Part shown: positions 10,828 to 58,273 of the stretch, piece by piece | Position numbering within the stretch: the first letter of the stretch is position 1 | Layout of the letters: the number at the start of each line of letters is the position of its first letter | Assembly: GCA_038064495.1 (NCBI GenBank) | Contig: JBBTSZ010000002.1 | Location: forward strand, 152,934 to 216,933 | Direction: 5' to 3' | Source of the DNA: Patescibacteria group bacterium | GTDB lineage: Bacteria > Patescibacteriota > Minisyncoccia > Phycocordibacterales > Phycocordibacteraceae | DNA: 64,000 nucleotides | Notes under the pieces: model-generated | Told to the model about the DNA's origin: nothing | The model's database searches: none | The model's input: only the letters and a program-made list of their open reading frames with translations | Position numbers and translations under genes: made by a program

Positions 10828-12378
10828 CTACGGTGTGGTTGCAACCTGGACTTTCTGTCCATCGGAGAGTCCGCGTGCGTCGGTGACAATGCGAAGATCA
10901 CCCGGAAGTTCAGATCGGATTTCAATCTTGTTGCCACGTACGTCCCCAATCTCAACGGCATGTGAGACCAGGCGACCATTTTCTCCGATAGAGAACACCA
11001 CGCGGGCTGATGGTGTGAGTTTAAGTGCGGTGAGCGGAAGCAAAGTCGGGCCAGACGCTCCGGGCGTGGTTGGTGCAATACCCGTTGTCGGAAGAGCAAC
11101 ACGAACGGATTGACCATTCACAAGTCCACTACCTGAACTCACTGCCATGTGCACTTCTACCTGCTTCGTGACGGGATCAAGGGCTGGTGAAATGGAGGTA
11201 ATCGTTGCGTCATGTTTGTCTTCTATCTTTACTTTGCTTCCAACCGCAAGGAGTGTGCGGTTATCTTCAGAAACAAACGTCACAATTTCAAGTGCGCCAT
11301 TTTGTGCAACGGTTGCTACGTGCTGAAGTGGAGTCACGTAGTCACCAACACGTATTGGAAGGAAATTTACAGAGCCGCCAATTGGTGCGCGGATGAGTGT
11401 CTTCTCAAGTTGCGCCTGCGCAGCACGAAGTGCACCGAGCGCAATCTTCACACTCGCATTTGCTCCTGCACTCGCTGACGTCCCTTGGCTTTGATATGTC
11501 TGTTTGGCTGTGGTGATGCCGGACTGGATAGAGGCCACACTTGAACGTGCTGACGCGAGCGCGGTCAACTGACTTGCCGAGGCGTCGGTGTTGTAACGAG
11601 TTGCTGCTGTCGCGATGTCGGTAATGAGCGCATTTGCCTGACGAGTAACGACCTCCGCCTCAGTAAGTAATGTCAAAGGGTCGGAAGTTCCACTGGTCGC
11701 AAGGTGTGCACGCCATGCGTCCATAGAACTTTTAAGTTCTACTCGCTTGTTGGGGAAGTAGGAAAGGTCAAATGGATTCGGGGCAATCAGAAACAGTGGA
11801 CCTTGTGCACCAGGAGCTCCATAGAACGTATCTACATACGTATTCAGAGTTGAATCAAGAGAATTAAAAGACGAAGTGTAGGTATTACGAGCTGATGTGT
11901 TGATGTCACCAGGAGCCGTTCCTGAGCGTGCCGCGATAGCGGCATCATAGCTACCTTCAGCTTGAAGTACACTAGCTCGTTGAGATGCATTCTCAAGTTC
12001 AGCGAGCACATAGCCAGCTGGAATGCTTCCGCCAAGCGAAGTGCGAACGCTCGTCACCGTTCCGCCACTTTGCGCAATAATGCTCGCCTCAGTGATGGAA
12101 CGAACTGAACCAATAACCCCAACTGAAGAAGTGCCTCCGGAAAGTTCTGATACGGCAGCAACCGTAACGGTTGGAAGCTGAGTGAGGGCATCAACTTTTG
12201 GACTAAACAATCCCGTAATCAAGAAACCAAGACCAACAACAAGGGCTACCAGAATAGCCCCTACGATGATTTGCATGCGACGAGAGAGCGCACGGTAGCG
12301 CTTATACAGAGAAACTGCAGTCGTCTGCACCTTCGTCAGATAGGCTCTGACGGGTATGCGTGAAAGAAAACGCTTCAT
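10828..12378 (-). CDS. efflux RND periplasmic adaptor (membrane fusion protein, HlyD family), extended coiled-coil
   Basis: N-terminal TM anchor, long Ala/Thr/Ser coiled-coil, C-terminal beta-barrel/lipoyl-like segments; directly upstream of the RND permease. Confidence 0.75.
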   Translation of the reverse strand: MKRFLSRIPVRAYLTKVQTTAVSLYKRYRALSRRMQIIVGAILVALVVGLGFLITGLFSPKVDALTQLPTVTVAAVSELSGGTSSVGVIGSVRSITEASIIAQSGGTVTSVRTSLGGSIPAGYVLAELENASQRASVLQAEGSYDAAIAARSGTAPGDINTSARNTYTSSFNSLDSTLNTYVDTFYGAPGAQGPLFLIAPNPFDLSYFPNKRVELKSSMDAWRAHLATSGTSDPLTLLTEAEVVTRQANALITDIATAATRYNTDASASQLTALASARSSVASIQSGITTAKQTYQSQGTSASAGANASVKIALGALRAAQAQLEKTLIRAPIGGSVNFLPIRVGDYVTPLQHVATVAQNGALEIVTFVSEDNRTLLAVGSKVKIEDKHDATITSISPALDPVTKQVEVHMAVSSGSGLVNGQSVRVALPTTGIAPTTPGASGPTLLPLTALKLTPSARVVFSIGENGRLVSHAVEIGDVRGNKIEIRSELPGDLRIVTDARGLSDGQKVQVATTP

Positions 12379-12473: not shown

Positions 12474-14162
12474 ATGAAATGTATGACGCAGAGCGAAGCC
12501 TTGGATATTTTAAAAACAGGTGCGAACGTGTTTCTCACGGGGGAGCCGGGGAGTGGCAAGACGCATACGCTTACCGCCTACGTCGCATGGCTTCGCAGTC
12601 ACGGCATTGAACCAGCCATCACCGCTTCAACGGGTATTGCTGCAACCCACGTAGGAGGCATGACTATTCATTCGTGGAGCGGTATCGGCATTTTGGAGCG
12701 CATGGATGCGGAGGATTTGGATCGCATTGCGTCAAAAGAGCATGTGGCAAAGCGCATCATGAAAACAAAAGTACTCATCATTGATGAGATTTCCATGCTG
12801 TCGGGTGCTGCACTCACGATGATTGATAGAGTTGCCAAAGAAGTTCGAGGCGACACCCGTGCCTTCGGTGGTATGCAGGTCGTGTTCTCGGGCGATTTTT
12901 TCCAGCTGCCACCGATTACCCGTGGCGGAGCAGTCGCTGAATTTGCATTCGCCTCACGCGCGTGGCGGGACGCAGTACCGCTGGTGTGTTATCTCACCGA
13001 ACAGCACCGTCAGGACGACCCACATTTCCTCTCACTCCTTGCAGCTATTCGTGATGGTTCCTTTGATCACACGCACGCTTCAGAAATCCTTTCTCGTGAA
13101 AGTGACGGGGAAGAGTTAGACACTGAAGTCCCACGTTTATTTACGCACAACACGGATGTGGACCGAATCAATAACGACCATCTTGCAAAACTTCCGGGTG
13201 CTTCGCACGTATTCACCATGCAAGACACTGGTCCGTCGGTTTTGACCGAAGCCCTGAAGCGTGGCTGCCTGTCACCGGAACGACTCGTTTTAAAAGAAGG
13301 CGCAATTGTGATGTGCACCAAGAATAATCCGATAGGTGGCTATGTAAACGGCACCCTCGGAAAAGTAATTGGATTTGTGCGTGGTTCGGGCGAACCAATT
13401 ATTGAAACGCATGAAGGGAAAGAACTCATCATTACTCCTTTGGAGTGGGCGCTTGAAGAATCAGGAAAGATACGCGCAAAAGTAAGTCAGCTTCCGCTCC
13501 GTCTTGCGTGGGCGATTACCATCCATAAGAGTCAGGGTATGAGTATGGACGCTGCTGCCATGGACTTGTCTCGCACCTTTGAATTTGGTCAGGGGTATGT
13601 GGCACTTTCCCGCGTTCGCTCGCTTTCTGGACTCACTCTGCTTGGCTGGAGCGAGCAGGCCTCCATGGTGCATCCGGAAGTTGCGCGCCTGGATGAGCGT
13701 CTCCGGGAAGAATCCATGGCAGCGATTGAGGCCTTTGAAACACTTCGTGAAGAAGGCGACCTCAAAACCATGCATCTGAATTTTATCCGCGCTTCTGGCG
13801 GTGTGCTTGAAGCAAGCGAAGATGGCGAGCGCCCTATGAAGCGCACCACGTACGACGAAACCCTCTCCTTAATCATGGAGGGAATGCCCCTTATTGATAT
13901 AGCAAAGGAACGAAAACTCACGATTGGTACGATTGCGGACCACGCCGAGAAACTTATTTTGAAAGACAGGCTGGATGTTCCCATGCTGCTTTCCCTGATT
14001 CCCGCACGCTTGATTACAGCACTTCCTGACATTCACGAGGTCTTTGAAACGGTGGGTGTGGAAAAGCTTGCTCCTGCGCACGCAAAGCTACGGGCTAAAT
14101 TTACCTACGACGAATTAAAGCTTGCACGTATCCTGTACGTAAAAGAGGCCGAGGTACAATAG
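12474..14162 (+). CDS. Pif1/RecD-like ATP-dependent DNA helicase
   Basis: Walker A GEPGSGKTHTL; VLIIDEISM (Walker B); IHKSQGMS and YVALSRVRS helicase motifs. Confidence 0.75.
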   Translation: MKCMTQSEALDILKTGANVFLTGEPGSGKTHTLTAYVAWLRSHGIEPAITASTGIAATHVGGMTIHSWSGIGILERMDAEDLDRIASKEHVAKRIMKTKVLIIDEISMLSGAALTMIDRVAKEVRGDTRAFGGMQVVFSGDFFQLPPITRGGAVAEFAFASRAWRDAVPLVCYLTEQHRQDDPHFLSLLAAIRDGSFDHTHASEILSRESDGEELDTEVPRLFTHNTDVDRINNDHLAKLPGASHVFTMQDTGPSVLTEALKRGCLSPERLVLKEGAIVMCTKNNPIGGYVNGTLGKVIGFVRGSGEPIIETHEGKELIITPLEWALEESGKIRAKVSQLPLRLAWAITIHKSQGMSMDAAAMDLSRTFEFGQGYVALSRVRSLSGLTLLGWSEQASMVHPEVARLDERLREESMAAIEAFETLREEGDLKTMHLNFIRASGGVLEASEDGERPMKRTTYDETLSLIMEGMPLIDIAKERKLTIGTIADHAEKLILKDRLDVPMLLSLIPARLITALPDIHEVFETVGVEKLAPAHAKLRAKFTYDELKLARILYVKEAEVQ

Positions 14163-15240: not shown

Positions 15241-17025
15241 ATGGAAATCCGAAACATAGCGATTATCGCGCACGTGGACCACGGCAAGACCACGCTTACT
15301 GACGCCCTTATGCGCCAGACGGGCGCGGTGGCAGAGGGTGTTTCCATGGATTCCAACAAGCTCGAGCAGGAGCGTGGCATCACGATTTACTCCAAGAACA
15401 CCTCTATTGAGTACAAAGGAACGAAGATTAACATCGTAGACACTCCTGGACACGCGGACTTCGGTTCAGAAGTTGAGCGCGTGCTTCGCTCCATTGACTC
15501 CGTACTCCTCGTCGTAGACGCGCAGGAGGGTCCGATGCCACAGACGCGTTTCGTATTAAAGAAATCACTTGAGCTCGGTCTGAAGCCTATCGTTGTGTTG
15601 AACAAGATTGATAAGCCTGCAGCAAATCCGGCTCACGCAGAAGAAGCGGTACTTGAGCTTTTTCTTGAACTCGGCGCGAGCGACGCACAGTCTGACTTCA
15701 CCACGGTCTACGCTATTGGTCGTGAGGGTGTCGCGATGCGTAATCTTACCGACGAACGCAAAGACCTCACTCCACTGCTTGATGTGGTGCTTGAACAAGT
15801 ACCACCAGCTTCAACTCCTGAAGCCGTTACGAAGCCTGCAAAGCTCCAGGCATTTAACCTTGCCTACGACAATTTCCTTGGTCGTCTCGCTATCTGCCGT
15901 ATCTATGACGGTGTGATTAAGGCGGGAGACGCGGTGACCGTGAAGAAGCCAGATGGTACGGCTCGTACCGGGAAAATCACCAAACTCTTTACCTTTAAGG
16001 GTATTGAGCGTGTTGATGTGCCTGAGGCACAAGCAGGAGACATTGCTATCGTTGCGGGACTTCCCGACATTTTCATCGGAGAAACTATTTCCGTTGATGC
16101 GAACGTTGAACCACTTCCCGCGATTGCTATTGATGAGCCAACGATTACCGTGAACTTCCTCGTGAACAACTCACCGTTTGCTGGAAAGGAAGGGAAGTAT
16201 GTTACCAGCCGTCAGTTGCGCGAATACCTTGAGCGTGAGCTTGAAGTAAACGTGGGACTGAAAGTGGACTTCGTCTCACCAGATGCGTTTAAAGTTTCTG
16301 GACGCGGTGAACTTCACATCGCGATTCTTCTTGAGAACATGCGTCGTGCGGGTTACGAAATGCAGGTGTCTCAGCCACAGGTCATCATCCGCGAGGAAGA
16401 AGGCAAGAAGCTTGAGCCATTTGAAGAAGTCATTATTGATACGCCGAGCGAGTTCCAGGGAGCTATTATTGAGCGACTCGGTACGCGCGCATTCGTACTT
16501 CAGAATCTGGTACAACATGAAAATCAGGTTCGCCTTACCTTTGAAGGACCAACACGAGGCCTCCTCGGGTACCGTAACCAGTTTGTTGTGGACACGAAGG
16601 GTGAGGGTATCCTCTCGTCTCGCGTGCTTGGCTTCAAGCCATTTGCGGGCGACATCAAGAAGCGTCAGGTGGGTTCTATGATTTCCATGGCGACCGGAAA
16701 GGCTCTTGGCTACGCTCTCTGGAGCATGCAGGAGCGCGGTGTGCTCTACATTATTCCTGCAACTGAGGTGTATGAGGGTATGGTTGTTGGAAACACAAGT
16801 AAGGGTGAAGAAATGGTAGTGAACCCAACGAAAGGAAAGAACCAATCAAACGTACGCTCTTCTGGTATGGATGAGGCTATTAACCTCGTACCAGCTTTCA
16901 CACTCACCATTGAACGCGGTCTTGAAGTTATGGCTGAAGACGAATACTTGGAAATCACTCCACTTTCAGTGCGACTGCGCAAGCAGGGACTTACAGAGAC
17001 TGAACGCGCAAAAGCCCGCCGATAG
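15241..17025 (+). CDS. typA: translational GTPase TypA/BipA
   Basis: [36 protein letters not shown]-motifs; full-length BipA-like. Confidence 0.9.
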
Positions 17026-17026
17026 A

Positions 17027-17088
17027 GCTTGCTGAAAAGCACCCATCTGCGTTGTTGCTCGTTTCGCTCAAAGCCTCACTGTACTAGC
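17027..17088 (+). repeat. palindromic intergenic repeat, copy A (3' truncated)
   Basis: CTGCGTTGTTGCTCGTTTCGCTCAAAGCCTCACTGTACTAGCATGTACACCTCGGCTTTTC; same family as 35282-35356 (reverse), 39501-39572 and 47031-47106. Confidence 0.7.
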
Positions 17089-17497
17089 ATGTACACCTCG
17101 GCTTTTCTCTAAATTCCCTGAATCAGTTCCCCGAACTATTTCAGAGCGCCTAGCATCTGAACACTTTTCAACAACCTCTCGATAGGTAGTTCCGATTTCT
17201 GTAGTAATGAAATATCTGTATAACGTAGCGCGTATTAGAATAGGGAGGATGCTTAGAAGATAGGGTGCAGTGCAGGTCTCAGCGAGCGGGACCCGCACTG
17301 CAGCGTGTTCTGACGCACCTTGCGTAACAGCATTCTCCATGCTATAGTCAACATACAACTGGGCTCTATAGTTTTTCTGTCTTGAGGTTTCTAAAGAAAC
17401 GGCTCGAGACGAGGGATGACACTTCACCCTCTAAACTCTCGAGAACCGTTGTGCATTATTCCAATACGCATTTTTGCGTATTTAGAAACCAACATAC

Positions 17498-19703: not shown

Positions 19704-19743
19704 TCTCTCCTCACTCGTTTGAAAGAGAAAACAGCCCCTTCGG

Positions 19744-19775
19744 GCTGTTTTCTCTAATCTCACAAAGGGCTTTTC
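19744..19775 (+). terminator. intrinsic terminator CAGCCC-cttc-GGGCTG + TTTTCTCT
   Basis: Hairpin plus T-tract directly after the DsbA-family stop. Confidence 0.6.
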
Positions 19776-24980: not shown

Positions 24981-25451
24981 ATGGCGTTTCCAGCCGTACA
25001 TACTAAAGCACCGGACTTTACGCTCCCTGACCAAGATGGAAAGATGCATACCTTGAGCGCACTCAAAGGCTCATGGGTGCTCATCTATTTTTATCCGAAA
25101 GACGATACGCCAGGATGCACGAAGCAGGCGTGCATGCTTCGCGATGCTGAGCCGGATTTTTCAAAACTAAACGCCGTCGTACTCGGTGTGTCAGCGGACT
25201 CGATCGCAAAACACAAAAAGTTTGTGGACAAATATGGCCTCCCATTTCCGCTTCTTGCAGACGAAGATAAGAAGGTGGTGAAAGCCTACGATGTGTGGCA
25301 GTTGAAAAAGATGATGGGTAGAGAATACGAAGGCATTGTCCGGACCTCATTTCTGATTAATCCAAAGGGAGAGATTGAAAAGATTTACGAAAAAGTGAAG
25401 CCGGAAATGCATGCAGAAATGGTACTTGCCGACCTAAAGGAGTACGCCTAA
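24981..25451 (+). CDS. bcp: thiol peroxidase Bcp (peroxiredoxin Q family)
   Basis: FYPKDDTPGCTKQAC peroxidatic Cys motif. Confidence 0.85.
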   Translation: MAFPAVHTKAPDFTLPDQDGKMHTLSALKGSWVLIYFYPKDDTPGCTKQACMLRDAEPDFSKLNAVVLGVSADSIAKHKKFVDKYGLPFPLLADEDKKVVKAYDVWQLKKMMGREYEGIVRTSFLINPKGEIEKIYEKVKPEMHAEMVLADLKEYA

Positions 25452-25569
25452 AAAGCTCATATGCTTTGTTACGGGTCCCAACTGGCTCGTCCGCCGTATA
25501 GCACATACGTCTCCCTCGCCAGTTTTCCCGTGCCTCGCCTCTGAAGCTTTTTAAACGTACTCTAAGCCC

Positions 25570-35158: not shown

Positions 35159-35281
35159 AACAGTTGTGTTACTGATTTTATAAATTGATTTGCCTAGTTA
35201 GGTCACTAGTTTTTGAGCGGACGTTTGTCTGCACAAAAACTAAGTACGTAATCTGAGTTCTTTAAAAATGCTTAGATGCTA

Positions 35282-35356
35282 GGCACTCGCGAGCGAAAAG
35301 CTGAGGTGTACTCATAGTACAGTGAGGCTTTGAGTGATGCGAGTAACAACGCAGAT
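35282..35356 (-). repeat. palindromic intergenic repeat, copy D (reverse orientation)
   Basis: Reverse complement reads ATCTGCGTTGTTACTCGCATCACTCAAAGCCTCACTGTACTATGAGTACACCTCAGCTTTTCGCTCGCGAGTGCC. Confidence 0.7.
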
Positions 35357-35374
35357 AAGTATTTTTCAAGAAAC

Positions 35375-37090
35375 TTAGCGGGCGAAGAAGGGAAGCACCC
35401 ATTCTGTCCGTCTATGCCATGACGAAACAGTTGCAAAGCGGTCTGCAGGCGACGTGATTTGTGGAAGTACCACACCACCCAGGTCTTGAGGCACAGCATA
35501 CACGAAGTCTGGGGCGTGTGTGAAGAGTGCACCGTAGTCACTGGTAATCTCATCACTTATCTTTTGGAGACTCGCTAGACGCTTTGTTTCGTCACTTTCC
35601 TGACGATTCTTTTCAAGAAGCTGGTCCACGCTGCGGTTTGCGTAGAGTGCAATATTGAGGCCCGGGTCCTGACGCTGTGAGGAATCCCAGAAAGCAAAGA
35701 GGTCCTGATTGCGACCAATCACCATGCCAAAGAAGAGTGCCTCGTATTTCCGTGGACGGATGACTTCGTTTGGGAGCGCACTTGGTTCATGGAACTCAAG
35801 TGAGGTAGCTACACCTAGGGCCTGCCAGTCATCCTGCACACTTGCGGCAAGTGTCTTCAGCTCAGGCACGTTTGAGGTGGTGATAACCAAAGGTCCAAGC
35901 GTGAGCTTTTGCTTTGCATTTTTCCATACACCCGCCACTTCGTCGTATGCCCAGCCGTTATCGGTGAGCACTTTCTTTGCAGCGGCAACATTGTCGCCGT
36001 CTAGTGGAACTGGCTCACTGACACCTGCACCTGGAGGCACCGGCCCAGCTAGTGGTGTGGCGTACCCGCCGAGCAAATCCTTCGTGATGTGCGTGCGGTT
36101 GATGGCAAGCGAGAGGGCCTTGCGAACCTCAATTCGAGCAAAGAGTTTGTTCTGTTCAGGGTTCAAGAAGATGCCAAACACACGGGAGTAGGGCGCGGTG
36201 ATGCTGGTGTCCGAAGGAACCCCATATGCACTCTCCACCTTTCCATGCGCATACGCATTTTCTAGTTCGTCCGTAGTAACAAAGAACACAAAGTGCATGG
36301 AATTGAGATACGGCTTTCCGAGCGCGTACTGCTTGAAAGCTTTCACCTCAAAGTCGGTAATCATGTTGTCGCTGTCTTTGGTGATCTTCGTCACTTGAAA
36401 CGGCCCAGCGCCAACCGGATTCGTCATCAACTCAGAAAACGGAAACTGTTCATTTGGAATATTCTTCCAGAGATGTGACGGCAAAATACCGAGCGTCGTG
36501 TCTTCAAGAAACGGTGCATAGGCCTTCGGCAGGGTAAACACAACCGTTCGCGAATCAACTGCTTCTGCTCGGATGTTCGCCCAGTTTGCGAGTTCTGGCG
36601 ACTTGAGTGAAGGATCCTGCGCCTTGGTGACTGTAAAGACGACGTCTTGTGCGGTTACCGGAGTTCCGTCTGAGAACTTCAAACCTTCCTTCAGGACAAA
36701 GGTATATTCCTTACCGTCTTCTGAAATCGTGTAGCTCTCCGCAAGCACCGGGTGAAGACCACCCGGCCCCACACCCATGAGTCCTGCGTAGGTGAGTGCT
36801 ACCAAGTCGCGGTCTGAGTCCGTGAGTGCAAGCAGTGGGTTGATGAAGCGGGGAGGCCCGACGACACCTTCCGTCAAACTTCCACCATGACGAGGTACCT
36901 CTACCAAGAACGTACGCTCAAGAGCAATGATACCCACAAGACACGAAACAATGAGAACACCTCCAAGTACGAGTGTTAGAAGCTTGTCACTTGGAGAAAG
37001 ACTACGAAAGAAGCTGGAAAGTCTTTCCAGAACGAGAACCTGTCGACGGCGCGACAGGGTAGCAAGAATCCCAGAGAACCGACTATCCAT
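35375..37090 (-). CDS. ABC transporter substrate-binding protein, family 5 (peptide/nickel type), N-terminally TM-anchored
   Basis: SBP_bac_5-like sequence; the ORF extends to 37132 but that start would overlap secG by 35 nt, so ATG 37090 is preferred. Confidence 0.75.
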   Translation of the reverse strand: MDSRFSGILATLSRRRQVLVLERLSSFFRSLSPSDKLLTLVLGGVLIVSCLVGIIALERTFLVEVPRHGGSLTEGVVGPPRFINPLLALTDSDRDLVALTYAGLMGVGPGGLHPVLAESYTISEDGKEYTFVLKEGLKFSDGTPVTAQDVVFTVTKAQDPSLKSPELANWANIRAEAVDSRTVVFTLPKAYAPFLEDTTLGILPSHLWKNIPNEQFPFSELMTNPVGAGPFQVTKITKDSDNMITDFEVKAFKQYALGKPYLNSMHFVFFVTTDELENAYAHGKVESAYGVPSDTSITAPYSRVFGIFLNPEQNKLFARIEVRKALSLAINRTHITKDLLGGYATPLAGPVPPGAGVSEPVPLDGDNVAAAKKVLTDNGWAYDEVAGVWKNAKQKLTLGPLVITTSNVPELKTLAASVQDDWQALGVATSLEFHEPSALPNEVIRPRKYEALFFGMVIGRNQDLFAFWDSSQRQDPGLNIALYANRSVDQLLEKNRQESDETKRLASLQKISDEITSDYGALFTHAPDFVYAVPQDLGGVVLPQITSPADRFATVSSWHRRTEWVLPFFAR

Positions 37091-37517: not shown

Positions 37518-39472
<1,955 letters not shown>

Positions 39473-39500
39473 AAAGGAGCACAAATAAAACTTCTAACTT

Positions 39501-39572
39501 CTTTGTTGCTCGCTTCGCTCAAAGCCTCACTGTACTATTGAGTACACCTCGGCTTTTCGCTCGCGAGCGCCT
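39501..39572 (+). repeat. palindromic intergenic repeat, copy B (full length)
   Basis: CTTTGTTGCTCGCTTCGCTCAAAGCCTCACTGTACTATTGAGTACACCTCGGCTTTTCGCTCGCGAGCGCC; flanked by imperfect IR CAAATAAAAC / GTTTTGTTTG. Confidence 0.75.
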
Positions 39573-39618
39573 CGAATTTAATCGTTTTGTTTGCACTCTG
39601 ACAAATGGTAAATGAAAT

Positions 39619-39645
39619 GGGCCGCGGAGTAACCTCCGCGGCCCT
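39619..39645 (-). terminator. intrinsic terminator GGGCCGCGGAG-taacc-TCCGCGGCCC (minus-strand gene)
   Basis: Perfect stem; the minus strand continues ATTTCATTT. Confidence 0.55.
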
Positions 39646-42279: not shown

Positions 42280-42710
42280 CCGGACTGGCCCAGACGATCG
42301 CTCGGGTGAAAACCCGGGAGGAAAGTCCGAACACAGGCAGATTTCACAATTTGCAGAAAGGTAGCGGGTAACGCCCGTCCGCCGTAAGGCGCGAGGTGCG
42401 AACAGTGACGGTTCAGGGCGAAAGACCTGAACCGTCTGATCTAGCCGAAAGGACAGGTCAGACGAGCTCCTATGGTGACATAGGAGGTGAAACGGCTAAA
42501 TCCTTACCCCTGTGCAAGGCCGTGCCACCACACCAACTTCTTTGTTAGTTATTTGCTTACTAGACATACAGTAAGTTGATTTCTAGTGAGAAAGTTGGTG
42601 TGGTGGAGAGCCGCTCGAGGCCATCGGTAACGATGGTCCCAGATAGATGGTCGTCCGCCTCAAAAGCTCGCTTTTGAGGCGACAGAATTCGGCTTATCGG
42701 ACCAGTCCAA
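42280..42710 (+). ncRNA. rnpB: RNase P RNA (bacterial type A) with a ~80-nt AT-rich extended helix insertion
   Basis: P4 GGAAAGTCCG; GGTAACGCC; AGGTGAAACGG; 3' GACAGAATTCGGCTTATCGG; P1 GGACTGG/CCAGTCC; inserted perfect 17-bp stem CCACCACACCAACTTCT...AGAAGTTGGTGTGGTGG (42527-42603). Confidence 0.85.
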
Positions 42711-42717
42711 TTACATG

Positions 42718-42746
42718 CAAAAACCCGCCTTTTCGGCGGGTTTTTG
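42718..42746. terminator. intrinsic terminator AAAAACCCGCC-ttttc-GGCGGGTTTTT after rnpB
   Basis: Perfect stem flanked by A- and T-tracts. Confidence 0.75.
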
Positions 42747-42861
42747 CCATTTCTACTGTCCCCACCGATTCTGCTACTCATTGCTATTTTCGCCCGTATA
42801 CTTAAAGGGCATTATTAGCGTGCTTAGGGTTAATCCCGTGATTACGGAGTAACAAAACAAT

Positions 42862-45330: not shown

Positions 45331-47010
45331 ATGGTTCGCAGGATTCTAAAATCCTTATCAGCACCAGTACGCGGCCTTCATCAGGCCGCGTACTTGCTTG
45401 CAGCACTTACGCTCGCGTCGCAGGTGCTCGCGCTCTTGCGGGACCGACTCTTCGCGCATCAGTTTGGAGCAAGTAGTACGCTCGACTTGTACTACGCGGC
45501 GTTCAAAATCCCGGACGTAGTGTTCGCACTGGTAGCATCCCTCGTCTCTGCGTACGTACTGATTCCTCGGATTGCGAAAGCGGATACGGCGCATGCACGA
45601 AAACTGATTTCAGAGTGCGCCTCCTTCTTGATTATTGCAGGAGGCATCATCTGTGTGGTCATCGCCATCTTCGCTCCAGAGCTACTTCATCTGTTGTTCC
45701 CGACACTCTCAATGGGTAGTCATGAAGCTGACTTTGTTCTGCTGACGCGATTACTCTTGATTCAACCGATTCTACTCGGACTCTCAGGCATATTGACGAG
45801 TGTCACCCAGATTCATCGACGCTTCGTGCTGTTCGCGCTTTCACCGGTCTTGTACAACGTCGGTATTATCGCGGGAACGGTCTTCCTCTATCCACGGTAC
45901 GGCATTCCCGGTATTGGCATCGGTGTGGTGCTCGGAGCGATTGCGCACCTAGCTATCCATATTCCGATTGTGGTAGACGCTGGACTGTTTCCACGTCCGA
46001 GTGTACCGACGCCGAAGCTGATGTGGTCCGTGATTAAGGACTCCGTACCGCGCTCACTCGCGCTCGGGATGAGCTCCGTGATTACGCTCTTGCTCATCTC
46101 ACTTGCCTCAAGGGTGTCAGAAGGTTCAGTCGCGGTGTACACGCTTGCGAGTAATCTGGAAGCCGTACCCCTCTCCTTGATAGGAGCGTCGTACGCAACC
46201 GCGGCGTTCCCCGTGATGACGCAAATGATGAGCGAGAATCGGCTTGAGGCTTACAAGACAACGCTTACCGCTGCTGCTCGTCACATCATCTTCTGGTCGG
46301 CAGTTATCACGGTGCTCACGATTGTGCTACGAGCGTACATTGTTCGCGTGATTTACGGTACCGGCGCGTTTGATTGGAACGACACGCGTCTGACGGCTGC
46401 GGTACTCGCCATCCTTGTTGTCGGTCTGATGGCACAGGGACTCATCCTGCTCTCAGCCCGTGCCTTCTATGCGGCACAGCGTTCTTGGAATCCACTTCTG
46501 GTGCAGCTTGCTGATTGTGGTATCTCAGTGCTCGCGGCCTGGGGCATGCTGAACCTCGCTACAAACGTTCCGATGGTGCGGTACTTCGTGGAATCGCTCT
46601 TTCGTGTTGGGGACGTGCCGGGCACGAGTGTACTCTTTATCGCGCTTGGCGCGACGGTAGGGCAGGTGATTATGGGTACGGTTGCGCTCGGTACGCTTCG
46701 CACCGTAGCGAAGGGAGTCGCAGAGTCCCTCACTCGGCCAATGTTTGAAGGATTTGGAGCAGCCATTCTTGGCGGAGCTGCCAGCTATGGTGTCCTTTCC
46801 TTCATGGGAACACTCGCACCACTCACCACGCTCCCTTCGGTCTTTCTTGAAGGAGCAGTTGCTGGTATGGTGGGGCTAGCGGTGGCTGGTTGTGTGCTGT
46901 CACTTCTTGAAAATCAAGAGTTTCGGGATCTCTCAGAGTCACTCAGACGGCTCACCACTAAGGCGCTTTCGCCACATGGAGCTATCAACGACCACGCAGA
47001 CATCTCCTAG
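45331..47010 (+). CDS. murJ: lipid II flippase MurJ (MviN)
   Basis: 14-TM MOP-superfamily protein with MurJ-type N-terminus (LRDRLFAHQFGASSTLDLYYAAFKIPD). Confidence 0.8.
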   Translation: MVRRILKSLSAPVRGLHQAAYLLAALTLASQVLALLRDRLFAHQFGASSTLDLYYAAFKIPDVVFALVASLVSAYVLIPRIAKADTAHARKLISECASFLIIAGGIICVVIAIFAPELLHLLFPTLSMGSHEADFVLLTRLLLIQPILLGLSGILTSVTQIHRRFVLFALSPVLYNVGIIAGTVFLYPRYGIPGIGIGVVLGAIAHLAIHIPIVVDAGLFPRPSVPTPKLMWSVIKDSVPRSLALGMSSVITLLLISLASRVSEGSVAVYTLASNLEAVPLSLIGASYATAAFPVMTQMMSENRLEAYKTTLTAAARHIIFWSAVITVLTIVLRAYIVRVIYGTGAFDWNDTRLTAAVLAILVVGLMAQGLILLSARAFYAAQRSWNPLLVQLADCGISVLAAWGMLNLATNVPMVRYFVESLFRVGDVPGTSVLFIALGATVGQVIMGTVALGTLRTVAKGVAESLTRPMFEGFGAAILGGAASYGVLSFMGTLAPLTTLPSVFLEGAVAGMVGLAVAGCVLSLLENQEFRDLSESLRRLTTKALSPHGAINDHADIS

Positions 47011-47030
47011 ACAAGCCTGTTAAAACCACT

Positions 47031-47106
47031 CATCTGCGTTGTTACTCGCTTCGCTTAAAGCCTCACTGTACTATGAGTACACCTCAGCTTATCGCTCGCG
47101 AGCTCC
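47031..47106 (+). repeat. palindromic intergenic repeat, copy C, nested in a 14-bp perfect flanking IR
   Basis: CATCTGCGTTGTTACTCGCTTCGCTTAAAGCCTCACTGTACTATGAGTACACCTCAGCTTATCGCTCGCGAGCTCC; flanks CAAGCCTGTTAAAA (47012-47025) / TTTTAACAGGCTTG (47120-47133). Confidence 0.75.
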
Positions 47107-47197
47107 TGTCATATGAGGCTTTTAACAGGCTTGGTCCAAGTTACTTGCCATAAGTACTCCTTGTGGCAAGTATAGTTGGACTGACCAACGTTGTGTT

Positions 47198-48985
47198 ATG
47201 CATATCAGAAATTTCTCAATCATCGCTCACATTGATCACGGTAAGTCCACGTTGGCTGACCGTATGCTTGAGCGTACCGGTACGATTGAAGCTCGAAAGA
47301 TGCGTGATCAGGTGTTGGACAAAATGGATTTGGAACGTGAGCGCGGTATTACCATTAAAATGCAGCCGGCGCGGATGAAATATAAAGCGAATGATGGAAC
47401 CGACTACATTCTGAACCTCATTGATACTCCCGGACATATTGATTTCGCCTACGAGGTCTCGCGTGCATTGTCTGCAGTTGAAGGCGTGATTCTCTTGGTT
47501 GATTCCACGCAGGGCATTCAGGCGCAAACACTCACTACGCTCGGCATGGCGCGGAAAGCCGACTGCGTCATCATCCCCGTTATCTCAAAGATTGACTCAC
47601 CATACGCACGCTCTGAGGAAGTGAAGCTTGAACTTGCGGAGCTTCTTTCGGTTGAACCCGACACCATTCTTGCAGTGTCAGGTCGCACCGGAGACGGCGT
47701 TATCGAACTTCTTGAAGCAATCATTGAACGCGTGCCGGCGCCTCGAGAAGGGAGTGGAGAAGCACGCGCGCTTATTTTTGATTTCTCCTATTCAACACAC
47801 CGCGGTGTGGCCGTCTACGCGCGTGTGTTTGACGGAGCGGTTAAGAAAACCGATTTACTCCGATTTGGCGCAGCCGGTAAAAGATTCGCTGCCCTTGAAA
47901 CCGGTATCTTTATGCCGGACGAGCTTCCGACGGAAAAGCTTGAGGCGGGTGAGATTGGCTACATTGTGACCGGCATTAAGGAGGCGGGAGTGGTTGCCGT
48001 AGGAGACACTATCATGGCTGATAAGCCTGGTGTGATGCCCCTTTCCGGCTTTGAGCGCCCCCGTCCGGTGGTATGGGCCTCGGTGTATCCAGAAAGCCAG
48101 GACGACCTCGCAGACCTTCGCCAGTCACTTGAACGCCTCAGACTTTCCGACTCCTCGCTCTCCTTTGAAGAAGAATCATCCGGCGTACTTGGTCGGGGGT
48201 TCCGTTGTGGGTTCCTCGGTATGCTCCATCTTGAGATTATTACGGAGCGTTTGAAGCGAGAATTTAACCTCACGCTTATCGTCACTATTCCGACGATTGC
48301 ATACGTGGTCACGGATTCAAAAGGGAAGCGGGAAACCATTTACACCGCATCCAAGTTTCCTGCGTTCGGCGACATTCAGACGATTGAAGAGCCGTGGGTG
48401 AATGTCGTACTCATCACACCTCCTGAATCACTTTCCGGGCTTTTGCAGGCATTTCACGACCACGAAGGTGCGGTGAAAGATACTGAGACCCACTTGGACG
48501 GGCGTATTGAACTTGCCGCTGAGATGCCGCTTCGTGAACTCATGCGTGGCTTCTTTGATAAAGTAAAAAATATCTCGTCCGGCTACGCTTCACTTTCTTA
48601 CGAATTTCTGGATGAGCGAGTTGCGGATGTGGTGAAGCTTGAAATCTTTGTAGCAGAAGAACCGGTTCCAGCTTTTGCGCGTGTGGTAGCACGCAGACGT
48701 GTGGTGGAAGAGGGTGAACGTATGGTGGAGAAACTCCATGATATTCTTCCGCGCCAACAGTTTGTGCTTAAAATCCAAGCTCACGCACTCGGGCGCATCG
48801 TGTCGTCACGCTCCATTTCAGCCGTACGCAAAGACGTAACAGGCTATCTCTACGGAGGCGACATCACCCGAAAAATGAAACTCCTTGAAAAACAAAAGAA
48901 GGGAAAGAAGCGTCGTGGGGTGCATGCAAAGATGGAGATACCGCAGGAAGTTTTTATGAAAATGGTCCAAGATAGCGAACGATAA
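47198..48985 (+). CDS. lepA: elongation factor 4 (LepA)
   Basis: IRNFSIIAHIDHGKSTLADRML..., DTPGHIDF; full-length LepA including the C-terminal domain. Confidence 0.95.
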   Translation: MHIRNFSIIAHIDHGKSTLADRMLERTGTIEARKMRDQVLDKMDLERERGITIKMQPARMKYKANDGTDYILNLIDTPGHIDFAYEVSRALSAVEGVILLVDSTQGIQAQTLTTLGMARKADCVIIPVISKIDSPYARSEEVKLELAELLSVEPDTILAVSGRTGDGVIELLEAIIERVPAPREGSGEARALIFDFSYSTHRGVAVYARVFDGAVKKTDLLRFGAAGKRFAALETGIFMPDELPTEKLEAGEIGYIVTGIKEAGVVAVGDTIMADKPGVMPLSGFERPRPVVWASVYPESQDDLADLRQSLERLRLSDSSLSFEEESSGVLGRGFRCGFLGMLHLEIITERLKREFNLTLIVTIPTIAYVVTDSKGKRETIYTASKFPAFGDIQTIEEPWVNVVLITPPESLSGLLQAFHDHEGAVKDTETHLDGRIELAAEMPLRELMRGFFDKVKNISSGYASLSYEFLDERVADVVKLEIFVAEEPVPAFARVVARRRVVEEGERMVEKLHDILPRQQFVLKIQAHALGRIVSSRSISAVRKDVTGYLYGGDITRKMKLLEKQKKGKKRRGVHAKMEIPQEVFMKMVQDSER

Positions 48986-48995
48986 AAGAACTCCT

Positions 48996-49055
48996 TCTAC
49001 GTTGTTGTGGGCCCCGCTTGGCTCATCCGCCGTACTATGAGTACGTCTACTTCAC
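48996..49055 (+). repeat. degenerate copy E of the palindromic repeat family
   Basis: CTACGTTGTTGTGGGCCCCGCTTGGCTCATCCGCCGTACTATGAGTACGTCTAC shares the CGTTGTTG... and GTACTATGAGTAC blocks. Confidence 0.3.
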
Positions 49056-49122
49056 CAAACTGCCCACGCCTAGTATCTGGAATCCTTTTATCGTTCGCCG
49101 AGTGCGTTGGTATACTGAAGGC

Positions 49123-49798: not shown

Positions 49799-49811
49799 CG
49801 AACGATGAAAC

Positions 49812-49843
49812 AAAACCCGCAAGCTTTCCGCTTGCGGGTTTTG
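49812..49843 (+). terminator. intrinsic terminator AAACCCGCAAGC-tttcc-GCTTGCGGGTTTT
   Basis: Perfect 12-bp stem with T-tract. Confidence 0.75.
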
Positions 49844-49957
49844 TGCTAGTTTGTCTGTACGCCCTTGTAAGCAGCTCCATAGGAACGGACTGCTTGCGAG
49901 TTCCGCGTTTGGCGCAAAAGGATAGCATGTGTACATACCATCCTTTTGACCTCATTT

Positions 49958-57298: not shown

Positions 57299-57415
57299 AT
57301 TCTTGAGAGCTGTGTAAAAGTCTTCAGATTCGAGGCGTTTTCGAGCGAAAACATGAGGCGTACAAGTCGTACGGCGAATGTTTGAGAGAAGGAAACAACA
57401 AAGAAGATGAGTCTT

Positions 57416-58273
57416 TTAGACATGCTCTCCGGTAACGGGAGTCCAGGGGAGAGGAGAACCCCACTCTACAAAAAAAGCAGCTGAGTCAGGATGACCGTTG
57501 CCACCATATTTCTGCGCAATCTTCGTGAGATCAATAGTGCCATCTCCTCGAAGTGAGACGGCAACACCGCCACTTTTGAGTTGCAACACGAGACCCATCG
57601 GACCCTGCTTCTTTGCGAGTGCGTTTCCATAGGCAGACACCATCGTCTTCATGGGGTGTACCTGGCCGACGAGCACCTCGTATCCTTCAAAGGATACGAG
57701 CTTTGCTCGGTCCACAGCTTGTTCTACGAGAAGATCAAAGTATTCACGGTAAGCGCTCGCTTTCGCAAGGAGTGCAGAAGAGCGCTCTGGGTCATCGAGG
57801 GTAGCAGCAAGTTCATCCCAGAACTCAAATGAAAATGGACTTACAGAAATGTACGAGAGAAGTGCCTTTGTTTCGGGGAGTTTGAAACGGAACAAGTCAT
57901 CGTCTTCTACATGAAGCAGAAGACGGGGAATCGGTGTCTCAGGATGGAAATAGCTCCAGGCAATAGTTGCACCAGAGTGGTCTGCGTCGTACACATGCTC
58001 CGGAATACTGGTTACGACGTCCTCAATGCCCTCATGGTGATCAAGGACGGTAAGTGTTGTTGCTTCACCAAGAATCTTTTCCATGACCTCTTTGGTGTAA
58101 CAGAAATCAATAAAGTAGACCATTGCGCCGGCAAACTCGTCTGGCACGGGTGCGCCATAGGAAACCGGTAGATATTCAGCGGAGGTACCGAATTTCTTCC
58201 AGGCAGCATAGGCACCCCCGAAGCCATCGGGGCAATTCGCGTGGTAACAGATAAGAGTTCGTGCGGTGTCCAT
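57416..58273 (-). CDS. DHH-family phosphoesterase (NrnA-like nanoRNase/pAp phosphatase)
   Basis: DHH motif (LDHHEG) and DHHA1 GGNGHPDSAA. Confidence 0.8.
   Translation of the reverse strand: MDTARTLICYHANCPDGFGGAYAAWKKFGTSAEYLPVSYGAPVPDEFAGAMVYFIDFCYTKEVMEKILGEATTLTVLDHHEGIEDVVTSIPEHVYDADHSGATIAWSYFHPETPIPRLLLHVEDDDLFRFKLPETKALLSYISVSPFSFEFWDELAATLDDPERSSALLAKASAYREYFDLLVEQAVDRAKLVSFEGYEVLVGQVHPMKTMVSAYGNALAKKQGPMGLVLQLKSGGVAVSLRGDGTIDLTKIAQKYGGNGHPDSAAFFVEWGSPLPWTPVTGEHV

Follow-up and report, generated by a model that had tools for sequence, protein, structure and literature searches.

REPs, which have been proposed to act in mRNA stabilisation and in termination, are among the closest described counterparts of the repeat family reported here. 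ERIC/IRU elements (about 127 bp) and the Correia elements of Neisseria are imperfect palindromes found in mRNAs, where they form long RNA hairpins and have orientation-dependent effects, and strains differ in where they are inserted. Defined terminal repeats and a TA duplication characterise Correia elements; the copies of ERIC or Correia elements within a genome are similar in sequence, and their structure is not kept by compensatory change. The attC sites of integrons are imperfect palindromes at gene 3′ ends whose structure is conserved and of which one strand is functional when folded. REPs have a conserved GTAG or CGTC head (PMC3733652), and the subset of E. coli REPs that lies no more than 15 nt from a stop codon has been reported to stall ribosomes and to lower expression (PMC12306157). 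TIGR arrays, which are tandem 36-nt units beside Nop-domain genes, have been found in Patescibacteria too (PMC12045711).

The genomes of Patescibacteria are tiny, tightly packed and thought to be repeat-poor. Here we describe a structured repeat that stands at about one gene end in nine (seven copies) in a 64-kb stretch of DNA, hereafter the window, which lies on a 397-kb contig from the 0.1-µm filter fraction of Hainich groundwater (ENA ERZ1292619). A sequence-only reading of the window had noticed a family of intergenic repeats and had offered two options, a REP/MITE-like mobile element or a dedicated terminator or RNA-stability module. With moderate confidence, we favour a non-autonomous, REP/MITE-like mobile structured repeat of Patescibacteria (Paceibacteria/Parcubacteria).

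Results

Seven copies of one repeat in the window

All five copies that the sequence-only reading had listed were recovered in place and are real. The covariance model built from the family (R1) recognised seven copies in total, at 48–111 bits (Table 1), and copy E, which had been set apart from four good copies as degenerate, is not merely that: its stems differ from those of the other copies by compensatory changes, GTGGGC/GCCCAC replacing GCTCGC/GCGAGC, and a perfect 14-bp inverted repeat makes up its outer stem. Structure is likewise kept via compensatory changes in the divergent new copy between the redoxin and HhH-GPD genes. Exactly four occurrences of the 17-mer AAAGCCTCACTGTACTA were counted in the window, where shuffles predict 0.07, and a repeat finder connected the copies with one another, D and C matching across 107 nt. 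Every copy is intergenic or overlaps only a stop codon. Copy A had been called 3′ truncated and turned out to be interrupted: 6 nt of one arm have given way to 36 nt, after which the unit continues from 17144 (GAGCGCCTAGCATCTGAAC...), the segment 17144-17175 matching the far arm of copy D in the repeat-finder output.

Copy A is followed by a 320-nt non-coding spacer (17179-17497) with a further inverted repeat at ~17265-17305 (GTGCAGTGC...GCACTGCAG). The 90-aa ORF that the gene caller placed over copy A and this spacer (17068-17340, minus strand) is probably spurious.

Table 1. Repeat copies and ordinary terminators in the window (positions count from the first letter of the window; scores are those of covariance model R1)
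Feature	Position	Strand	R1 score	mRNA-sense / better-folding strand	Setting and remarks
Copy A	17015..17186	+	51 bits at 17023-17146 (−)	+ / −	hairpin over typA stop TAG 17023-17025
Replacement segment in copy A	17108..17143	+			36 nt; substitutes the GCTCGC arm of one stem; own small hairpin
New divergent copy	25440..25562 (model span 25437-25565)	+	47.9 bits, E 4e-8		between redoxin gene (stop TAA 25449-25451, within the 5′ arm) and HhH-GPD gene (start 25570)
Copy D	35254..35377	−	111 bits	− / +	directly past the stop of SBP_bac_5 (− strand), upstream of rnj
Copy B	39477..39598	+	105 bits		begins 5 nt past groEL stop 39470-39472
Copy C	47006..47140	+	98 bits		murJ stop TAG 47008-47010 inside the basal stem; lepA start 47198
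Copy E	48974..49099	+	78 bits		between lepA (stop TAA 48983-48985) and divIC
New copy (57303)	57302..57432 (model span 57303-57430)	−	87.5 bits		between 285-aa gene (− strand; stop TAA 57416-57418 in the TAAAAG tract of the copy) and tsaD (start 57298)
Ordinary bidirectional terminator	39619..39644	.			GC-rich, GGGCCGCGGAG-taac-CTCCGCGGCCC; intact 3′ of copy B
Ordinary bidirectional terminators	19728-19752, 42717-42747, 49810-49844				A-tract, GC stem, T-tract

A long hairpin with nearly invariant internal loops

Each copy folds as one long irregular hairpin, as had been predicted from the letters. The unit had been put at ~75 nt; the full hairpin is larger, at 120-140 nt (122-135 nt in the window with copy A at 172 nt, and 119-141 nt for the hairpins in general). 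The conserved unit also spans CATCTGCGTTGTT on its left, GCCTAGCATCTGA on its right and the A-tract and T-tract, all of which are aligned in every copy and in other genomes. As for the distinct inverted repeats said to flank each copy, the copy-specific outer repeats are real, but the A and T tracts that had been counted with them are part of the conserved unit. The basal stem thus has a copy-specific outer part and an inner part with the TAAAA...TTTTA tract, and the core of ~90 nt has three further stems of free sequence with internal loops between them, three of which are nearly invariant across copies. On the purine-rich strand, the invariant parts read UUCGAGGCR / YAACRAAG near the base and CGAG-NN-GUAC...GUAC-NN-YGAR at the top, and both loop regions resemble tandem G·A loops. 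At the apex, the loop is free in sequence and in length (3 to 8 nt).

A query for the apical motif (CTCACTGTACTA-N2-5-GTACACCTC) in one genome per bacterial or archaeal species gave six sites in four MAGs, two of them Patescibacteria/Parcubacteria; metagenomes gave six more sites, one in a MAG already found by the species scan, and viral contigs gave 0 matches. These sites have the same architecture as the window copies, with identical apical and basal internal loops and different stems. With the covariance model, the architecture was found in at least eight other Patescibacteria/Parcubacteria genomes and metagenome contigs, and the loops are conserved across genomes of 33-50% GC. Exact motifs of 17-24 nt are common to the window copies and at least eight other genomes or contigs.

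The model R1 was built from a plain MAFFT alignment of 15 copies, on which RNAalifold gave 27 pairs, 19 of them with compensatory double changes. Applied to other loci, R1 found 18 more copies, some of them divergent, with scores of up to 120 bits. An alignment of 25 copies, which was fitted to the model and with which the unfitted MAFFT result agrees, had double changes in 24 of the 27 pairs, with covariation in every stem. In that alignment, 91% of cells were paired compared with 30-48% when partners were slid, the covariation score was 0.63 compared with 0.09-0.15, and none of 500 shuffles reached the observed values. Orthologous copies in two further loci (L013 and L014) have identical loops and entirely different yet still complementary stems, with the flanking gene mostly conserved and a mean column identity of 78% over the whole alignment, which points to replacement by a paralogue or a concerted change of both arms.

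At the gathering threshold, Rfam 15 matched only RNase P RNA, tRNAs and one rRNA fragment in the window and loci L003-L008, and copy C was without a match even at E ≤ 10. The tails 3′ of the hairpin, in which a second conserved module was sought, had no shared sequence above noise. The RNase P RNA of the window (bacterial class A, 42282-42712, plus strand) is itself unusual, scoring only 130 bits and measuring 431 nt against a model of 367 positions. Its segment 42525-42606 is an inverted repeat with 37-nt arms, probably an expanded helix, and a 12-mer of the left arm (AACTTCTTTGTT) also occurs in copy B, at about chance level.

The hairpin begins at the stop codon, in fixed orientation

Where a long ORF lies upstream (21 copies), the last base of its stop codon falls between −15 and +1 nt relative to the first position of the 128-nt model span; the hairpin thus starts at or on the stop codon. 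The other neighbouring gene is 5 to about 500 nt away, and several copies provide the stop codon as the TAA of their own TAAAA tract. Placement downstream of highly expressed genes, as first proposed, is better described as placement directly on the stop codon of any gene: the neighbours in the window (typA, redoxin, solute-binding protein, groEL, murJ, lepA and a hypothetical gene) have no common theme, and those elsewhere include rpsL, rpsG and ssb (ORF translations read by eye, without a database check) as well as an HSP20 gene.

For all 14 model-confirmed copies (E ≤ 1e-4) between co-directional genes, the purine-rich strand is antisense; the strand on which the consensus was first written is therefore the mRNA strand. 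The exceptions are one weak copy (L015 6913-7039, 20 bits), which is reversed, and two copies in divergent promoter regions without a nearby stop codon. Two window copies leave only 5 nt between the hairpin and the next start codon. Since such copies lie between genes that overlap or abut in relatives, sense transcription must cross them.

The purine-rich strand folds better

Folding energies separated the two strands of the repeat. The purine-rich strand was the more stable in 26 of 26 copies, at a mean of −54 kcal/mol versus −39 kcal/mol for the opposite strand; for copy D, the values were −48.3 kcal/mol on the better strand and −30.5 kcal/mol on the original consensus strand. Fold z-scores ran from −5 to −6.5 for the reverse complement of that consensus versus −1.2 to −4.9 for the consensus itself. 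The fold of the purine-rich strand had 131 G·U pairs and eight single A·C mismatches, and the outer stems, which are copy-specific and were counted as independent, had 71 G·U and eight A·C. On the mRNA strand, C exceeded G in 26 of 26 copies. Mutational biases linked to transcription and replication would enrich G and T on the sense strand. We rejected such a bias as the source of the G·U asymmetry because the expected direction is opposite to that observed and because the orientation of the repeat flips with gene direction within a few kb, and we take the asymmetry, therefore, to reflect selection for the fold of the purine-rich strand. Together, folds and base composition show what appears to be structural selection on the strand antisense to the mRNA.

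Copy-specific outer stems and ordinary terminators

Past the conserved part, every window copy has 6-14 extra base pairs that are specific to it. In copy E, the left outer arm (GCGAACGATAAAAG) comprises the conserved coding end of lepA plus the stop codon, and a new inverted repeat of that stretch forms the right arm (CTTTTATCGTTCGC); short independent hairpins stand at this place in two relatives. Ordinary terminators of these genomes consist of outer pairs, TAAAAC, a GC stem, GTTTTA and outer pairs, like the basal stem of the repeat. Of 157 gene ends, 24 had a perfect hairpin (≥7 bp) that started −14 to +17 nt from the stop codon, compared with 4 of 157 mid-gene controls (~15% versus 2.5%; window plus L015-L018 and L020), and in some of these hairpins the last codons of the gene serve as one arm. 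On both strands, the inner stem of each of the seven window copies is followed by a T4-5 tract; the adjacent stem is not GC-rich, and a consensus terminator scan of the window did not call the repeat sites.

The anatomy of the repeat thus fits the earlier description of a core nested in a terminator-like hairpin, but the idea that the core had entered pre-existing terminators is conjectural and, for some copies, contradicted. Copy B lies upstream of the intact groEL terminator, which is outside the repeat and orthologous to the groEL terminators of relatives. Copies C and 57303 stand where relatives have a 2-nt spacer or overlapping genes, and the left outer arm of copy E is conserved coding sequence. 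Copies B, C and 57303 argue against a general rule of a pre-existing terminator. The outer stems probably arose when one flank was copied onto the other, by template switching in the palindrome, or when the repeat inserted into small hairpins.

Filled and empty sites in relatives

For comparison we used the syntenic loci of six genomes (L015-L020; about 98 kb in total), whose LepA is 85-92% identical to that of the window. The window LepA itself has a 100% identical match in a protein that NCBI assigns to a Patescibacteria group bacterium, and the LepA matches that come next bear the names Paceibacterota, Pacebacteria or Parcubacteria. Four sites, after murJ, lepA and groEL and upstream of tsaD, carry the repeat in the window but not in relatives. 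The murJ-lepA spacer, which holds copy C, measures 187 nt in the window, 2, 68, 2 and 21 nt in L015-L018, 2 nt in L020 and 76 nt in L019 (manual count), and its content in L016 and L019 is no more than a plain hairpin of 12-14 bp. Between lepA and divIC, the window has 137 nt (copy E) and L015-L018 have 17-33 nt, with unrelated inserts in L019 and L020. Downstream of groEL, relatives have the GC-rich terminator only, and the window has copy B followed by that terminator. Upstream of tsaD, the window has a 117-nt spacer with copy 57303, whereas in relatives the upstream gene overlaps tsaD; the window protein has acquired a new C-terminus, TGEHV, that ends in the TAA of the element.

R1 found one good copy in the ~98 kb of relatives, besides the weak reversed copy of L015, and both of their sites are empty in the window: the DUF2914-HSP20 site and the site after a TPR gene are filled in L015. 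At least four window sites that are empty in relatives, together with a single good copy per ~98 kb, support gain or mobility. One other genome has near-identical copies, and several copies in MAG GFS_12610 and related contigs even have their outer arms (TAGGACTTAC) in common, which suggests a recent burst. Overall, the comparison shows a family that appears to have been gained or to have spread within genomes, on stop codons and sometimes supplying the stop codon itself.

The exact insertion junctions could not be read from the relatives, since these are too diverged in their intergenic DNA. No direct repeats of a target-site duplication were present outside the outermost pairs of 26 copies, and no transposase or other candidate mobilising gene was annotated in the window, where a transposase search met only DinB, a LexA-like protein, a Pif1-type helicase and, at the window edge, a GIY-YIG fragment. 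The GIY-YIG domain fragment is at the start of the window, and the Pif1-type helicase, which has an HTH domain (12474-14162, plus strand), adjoins a 516-aa protein without a Pfam match (10828-12378, minus strand).

The closest relative by LepA (L019, 92%) has a different palindromic insert of ~145 nt after lepA (~1985-2135), with perfect 15-bp arms (GTTGCTGGGAAGGAG/CTCCTTCCCAGCAAC), that is not matched by R1. The spacer between lepA and divIC varies from 17 to 270 nt among the seven genomes and is an apparent hot spot for insertions.

Discussion

Of the two options first offered for the family, the mobile one gains from the filled and empty orthologous sites and from the near-identical copies in another genome, and loses from the lack of any duplication or transposase in view. 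The folded purine-rich strand, as single-stranded DNA or antisense RNA, may be recognised by a trans-acting enzyme, and such recognition would explain constant loops with covarying stems. The orientation tolerated in operons would be the one that puts the weaker, mismatch-rich hairpin in the mRNA. There the repeat might act like a stop-codon-proximal REP or a leaky terminator, as a 3′ stem-loop at the site where the ribosome terminates, and a stem-loop so placed could modulate termination, 3′-end stability or translation of the upstream gene. Against antisense transcription, the repeat would present a strong hairpin with a U-tract.

Further points weigh against a mobile element. A host function, too, would fit the long-term conservation of the loops; the only transcript certain to exist carries the strand opposite to the better-folding one; and we know of no mobilisation mechanism that explains an orientation tied to transcription. 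The weak reversed copy and the two copies in divergent promoter regions count against it as well. A mobile origin and a module with a host function are, moreover, not mutually exclusive.

The second option, a terminator or RNA-stability module, keeps some weight and is complicated by the antisense position of the better-folding strand. Its most developed form is a cis-acting, orientation-locked gene-end device of the host, whose copies would have spread by duplication and been kept by selection; we consider this unlikely and still a serious contender. At the gene border, the antisense RNA with its hairpin and U-tract would stop antisense or convergent transcription, and the weaker sense hairpin would allow read-through, possibly shielding the 3′ end or delaying the ribosome at termination. 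Such a device would cover stop-codon hugging, fixed orientation and strand asymmetry with a single idea. In the ordinary bidirectional terminators of the genome, too, A and T tracts border the stem; sense transcription has to cross copies that end 5 nt short of the next start codon and separate genes overlapping or abutting in relatives; and the stalling and lowered expression reported for E. coli REPs ≤15 nt from the stop (PMC12306157) would fit as well. However, the repeat is absent from the same gene ends in close relatives and is thus not required there, its sites are not called in the terminator scan, and a plain hairpin would be enough for termination, whereas three invariant loops suggest recognition by a specific factor.

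A bolder proposal, which we put forward as a rather improbable one, is that of a Patescibacteria-wide structured nucleic acid whose functional strand is antisense to the gene that it abuts, either a hairpin transposon or a gene-end insulator. The transposon could move as a single-stranded-DNA hairpin, choosing gene ends by a novel mechanism in an orientation set by transcription and leaving inverted rather than direct copies of the flank. The insulator could be a domesticated, one-way element that is read through its invariant tandem-G·A loops by a putative group-specific protein.

Independent small RNA genes on the purine-rich strand, convergent with the upstream gene, would account for the structure, the G·U pairs and the tandem G·A loops all being on that strand, and for covariation as strong as that of bona fide structured RNAs. 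Inspection by eye, inside the repeat and upstream of it, showed no conserved promoter or other conserved sequence upstream of the purine-rich strand, however. Two window copies have only 5 nt to the next start codon, the apical loops vary freely, and copies per genome vary widely between relatives. We regard small RNA genes as very unlikely. Ordinary intrinsic terminators that are alike by convergence or chance would share the location at gene ends with A-tract, hairpin and T-tract, but that reading is effectively refuted, with a negligible probability, by the exact common motifs, the R1 scores, the covariation and conserved internal loops, and by the true terminator intact beside copy B.

Conservation of one shape across genomes of very different base composition points to a factor that reads the repeat. 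Placement on the stop codon and fixed orientation tie it to the termination of transcription and translation, which is almost unstudied in these uncultured organisms, and the selection of the antisense strand, the hugging of stop codons and the copy-specific inverted flanks are unexplained features worth following. In practice, the covariance model can be used for annotation, and the repeat is a marker of recent genome change. It also disturbs gene prediction, through spurious ORFs in copies and in one nearby spacer, and can rewrite protein C-termini, as upstream of tsaD. Automatically called ORFs include one of 35 aa inside a copy (L015 13779-13886) and one of 52 aa in the unrelated lepA-divIC spacer of L020 (7915-8073), and ORFs called in such inserts likely inflate the counts of hypothetical proteins in these genomes.

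Comparison with known systems

Like REP/BIME elements, the repeat is an extragenic imperfect palindrome that is transcribed with the upstream gene and has many copies at 3′ ends and in operons. REPs, however, measure 20-40 nt compared with 120-140 nt here, and their GTAG/CGTC head is absent from the repeat, whose hairpin ends are copy-specific. Almost every copy of the repeat hugs a stop codon, compared with about 11% of E. coli REPs, and, unlike REPs, the repeat has a fixed orientation and internal loops that are conserved across distant genomes. REPINs, which RAYT transposases mobilise, are, like the repeat, non-autonomous long hairpins of inverted arms with a copy number that varies between relatives, and are likewise thought to be handled as single-stranded DNA hairpins. 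Unlike REPINs, the repeat has arms that are not two REP units around a spacer, is without GTAG and has an orientation tied to transcription. The gene calls for the window and for a few kb beside it (precomputed Pfam) included no RAYT (Y1/HUH) gene.

ERIC/IRU and Correia elements are similar in size, but belong to other phyla, and the repeat has no consistent duplication. Judged as a MITE, the repeat has inner arms (TAAAA.../...TTTTA and the adjacent bases) that are common to the copies; its outermost arms are common only within one subfamily (the TAGGACTTAC arms named above; L004, L005 and L012) and are unique in every window copy. Bidirectional intrinsic terminators resemble the basal stem of the repeat in having an A-tract and a T-tract around a hairpin directly after the stop codon. 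In the repeat, by contrast, a conserved core of ~90 nt replaces the loop of 4-5 nt, the stem by the T-tract is not rich in GC, and the copies, which are homologues of one another, also occur between overlapping or abutting operon genes.

Integron attC sites share with the repeat an imperfect palindrome at gene 3′ ends and the precedence of structure over sequence. We rejected them, as the hairpin ends are without GTTRRRY/RYYYAAC (by eye), there is no integrase or cassette array, and the flanks are syntenic housekeeping genes. TIGR-Tas guide arrays were likewise set aside, the copies being solitary and dispersed and the window having no Nop-domain gene, and hairpin and other ribozymes, SRP RNA and 6S RNA were dropped for want of their defining motifs or because the repeat is multi-copy.

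The repeat falls outside the closest kinds in being without a GTAG/CGTC head, a target-site duplication or a transposase in view, and the searchable literature on repeats, hairpins, terminators and MITEs of Patescibacteria/CPR has no description of it. The repeat is a previously undescribed family within a known kind, that of intergenic palindromic repeats, and the kinds closest to it are REP/BIME, REPIN, ERIC and Correia elements and MITEs.
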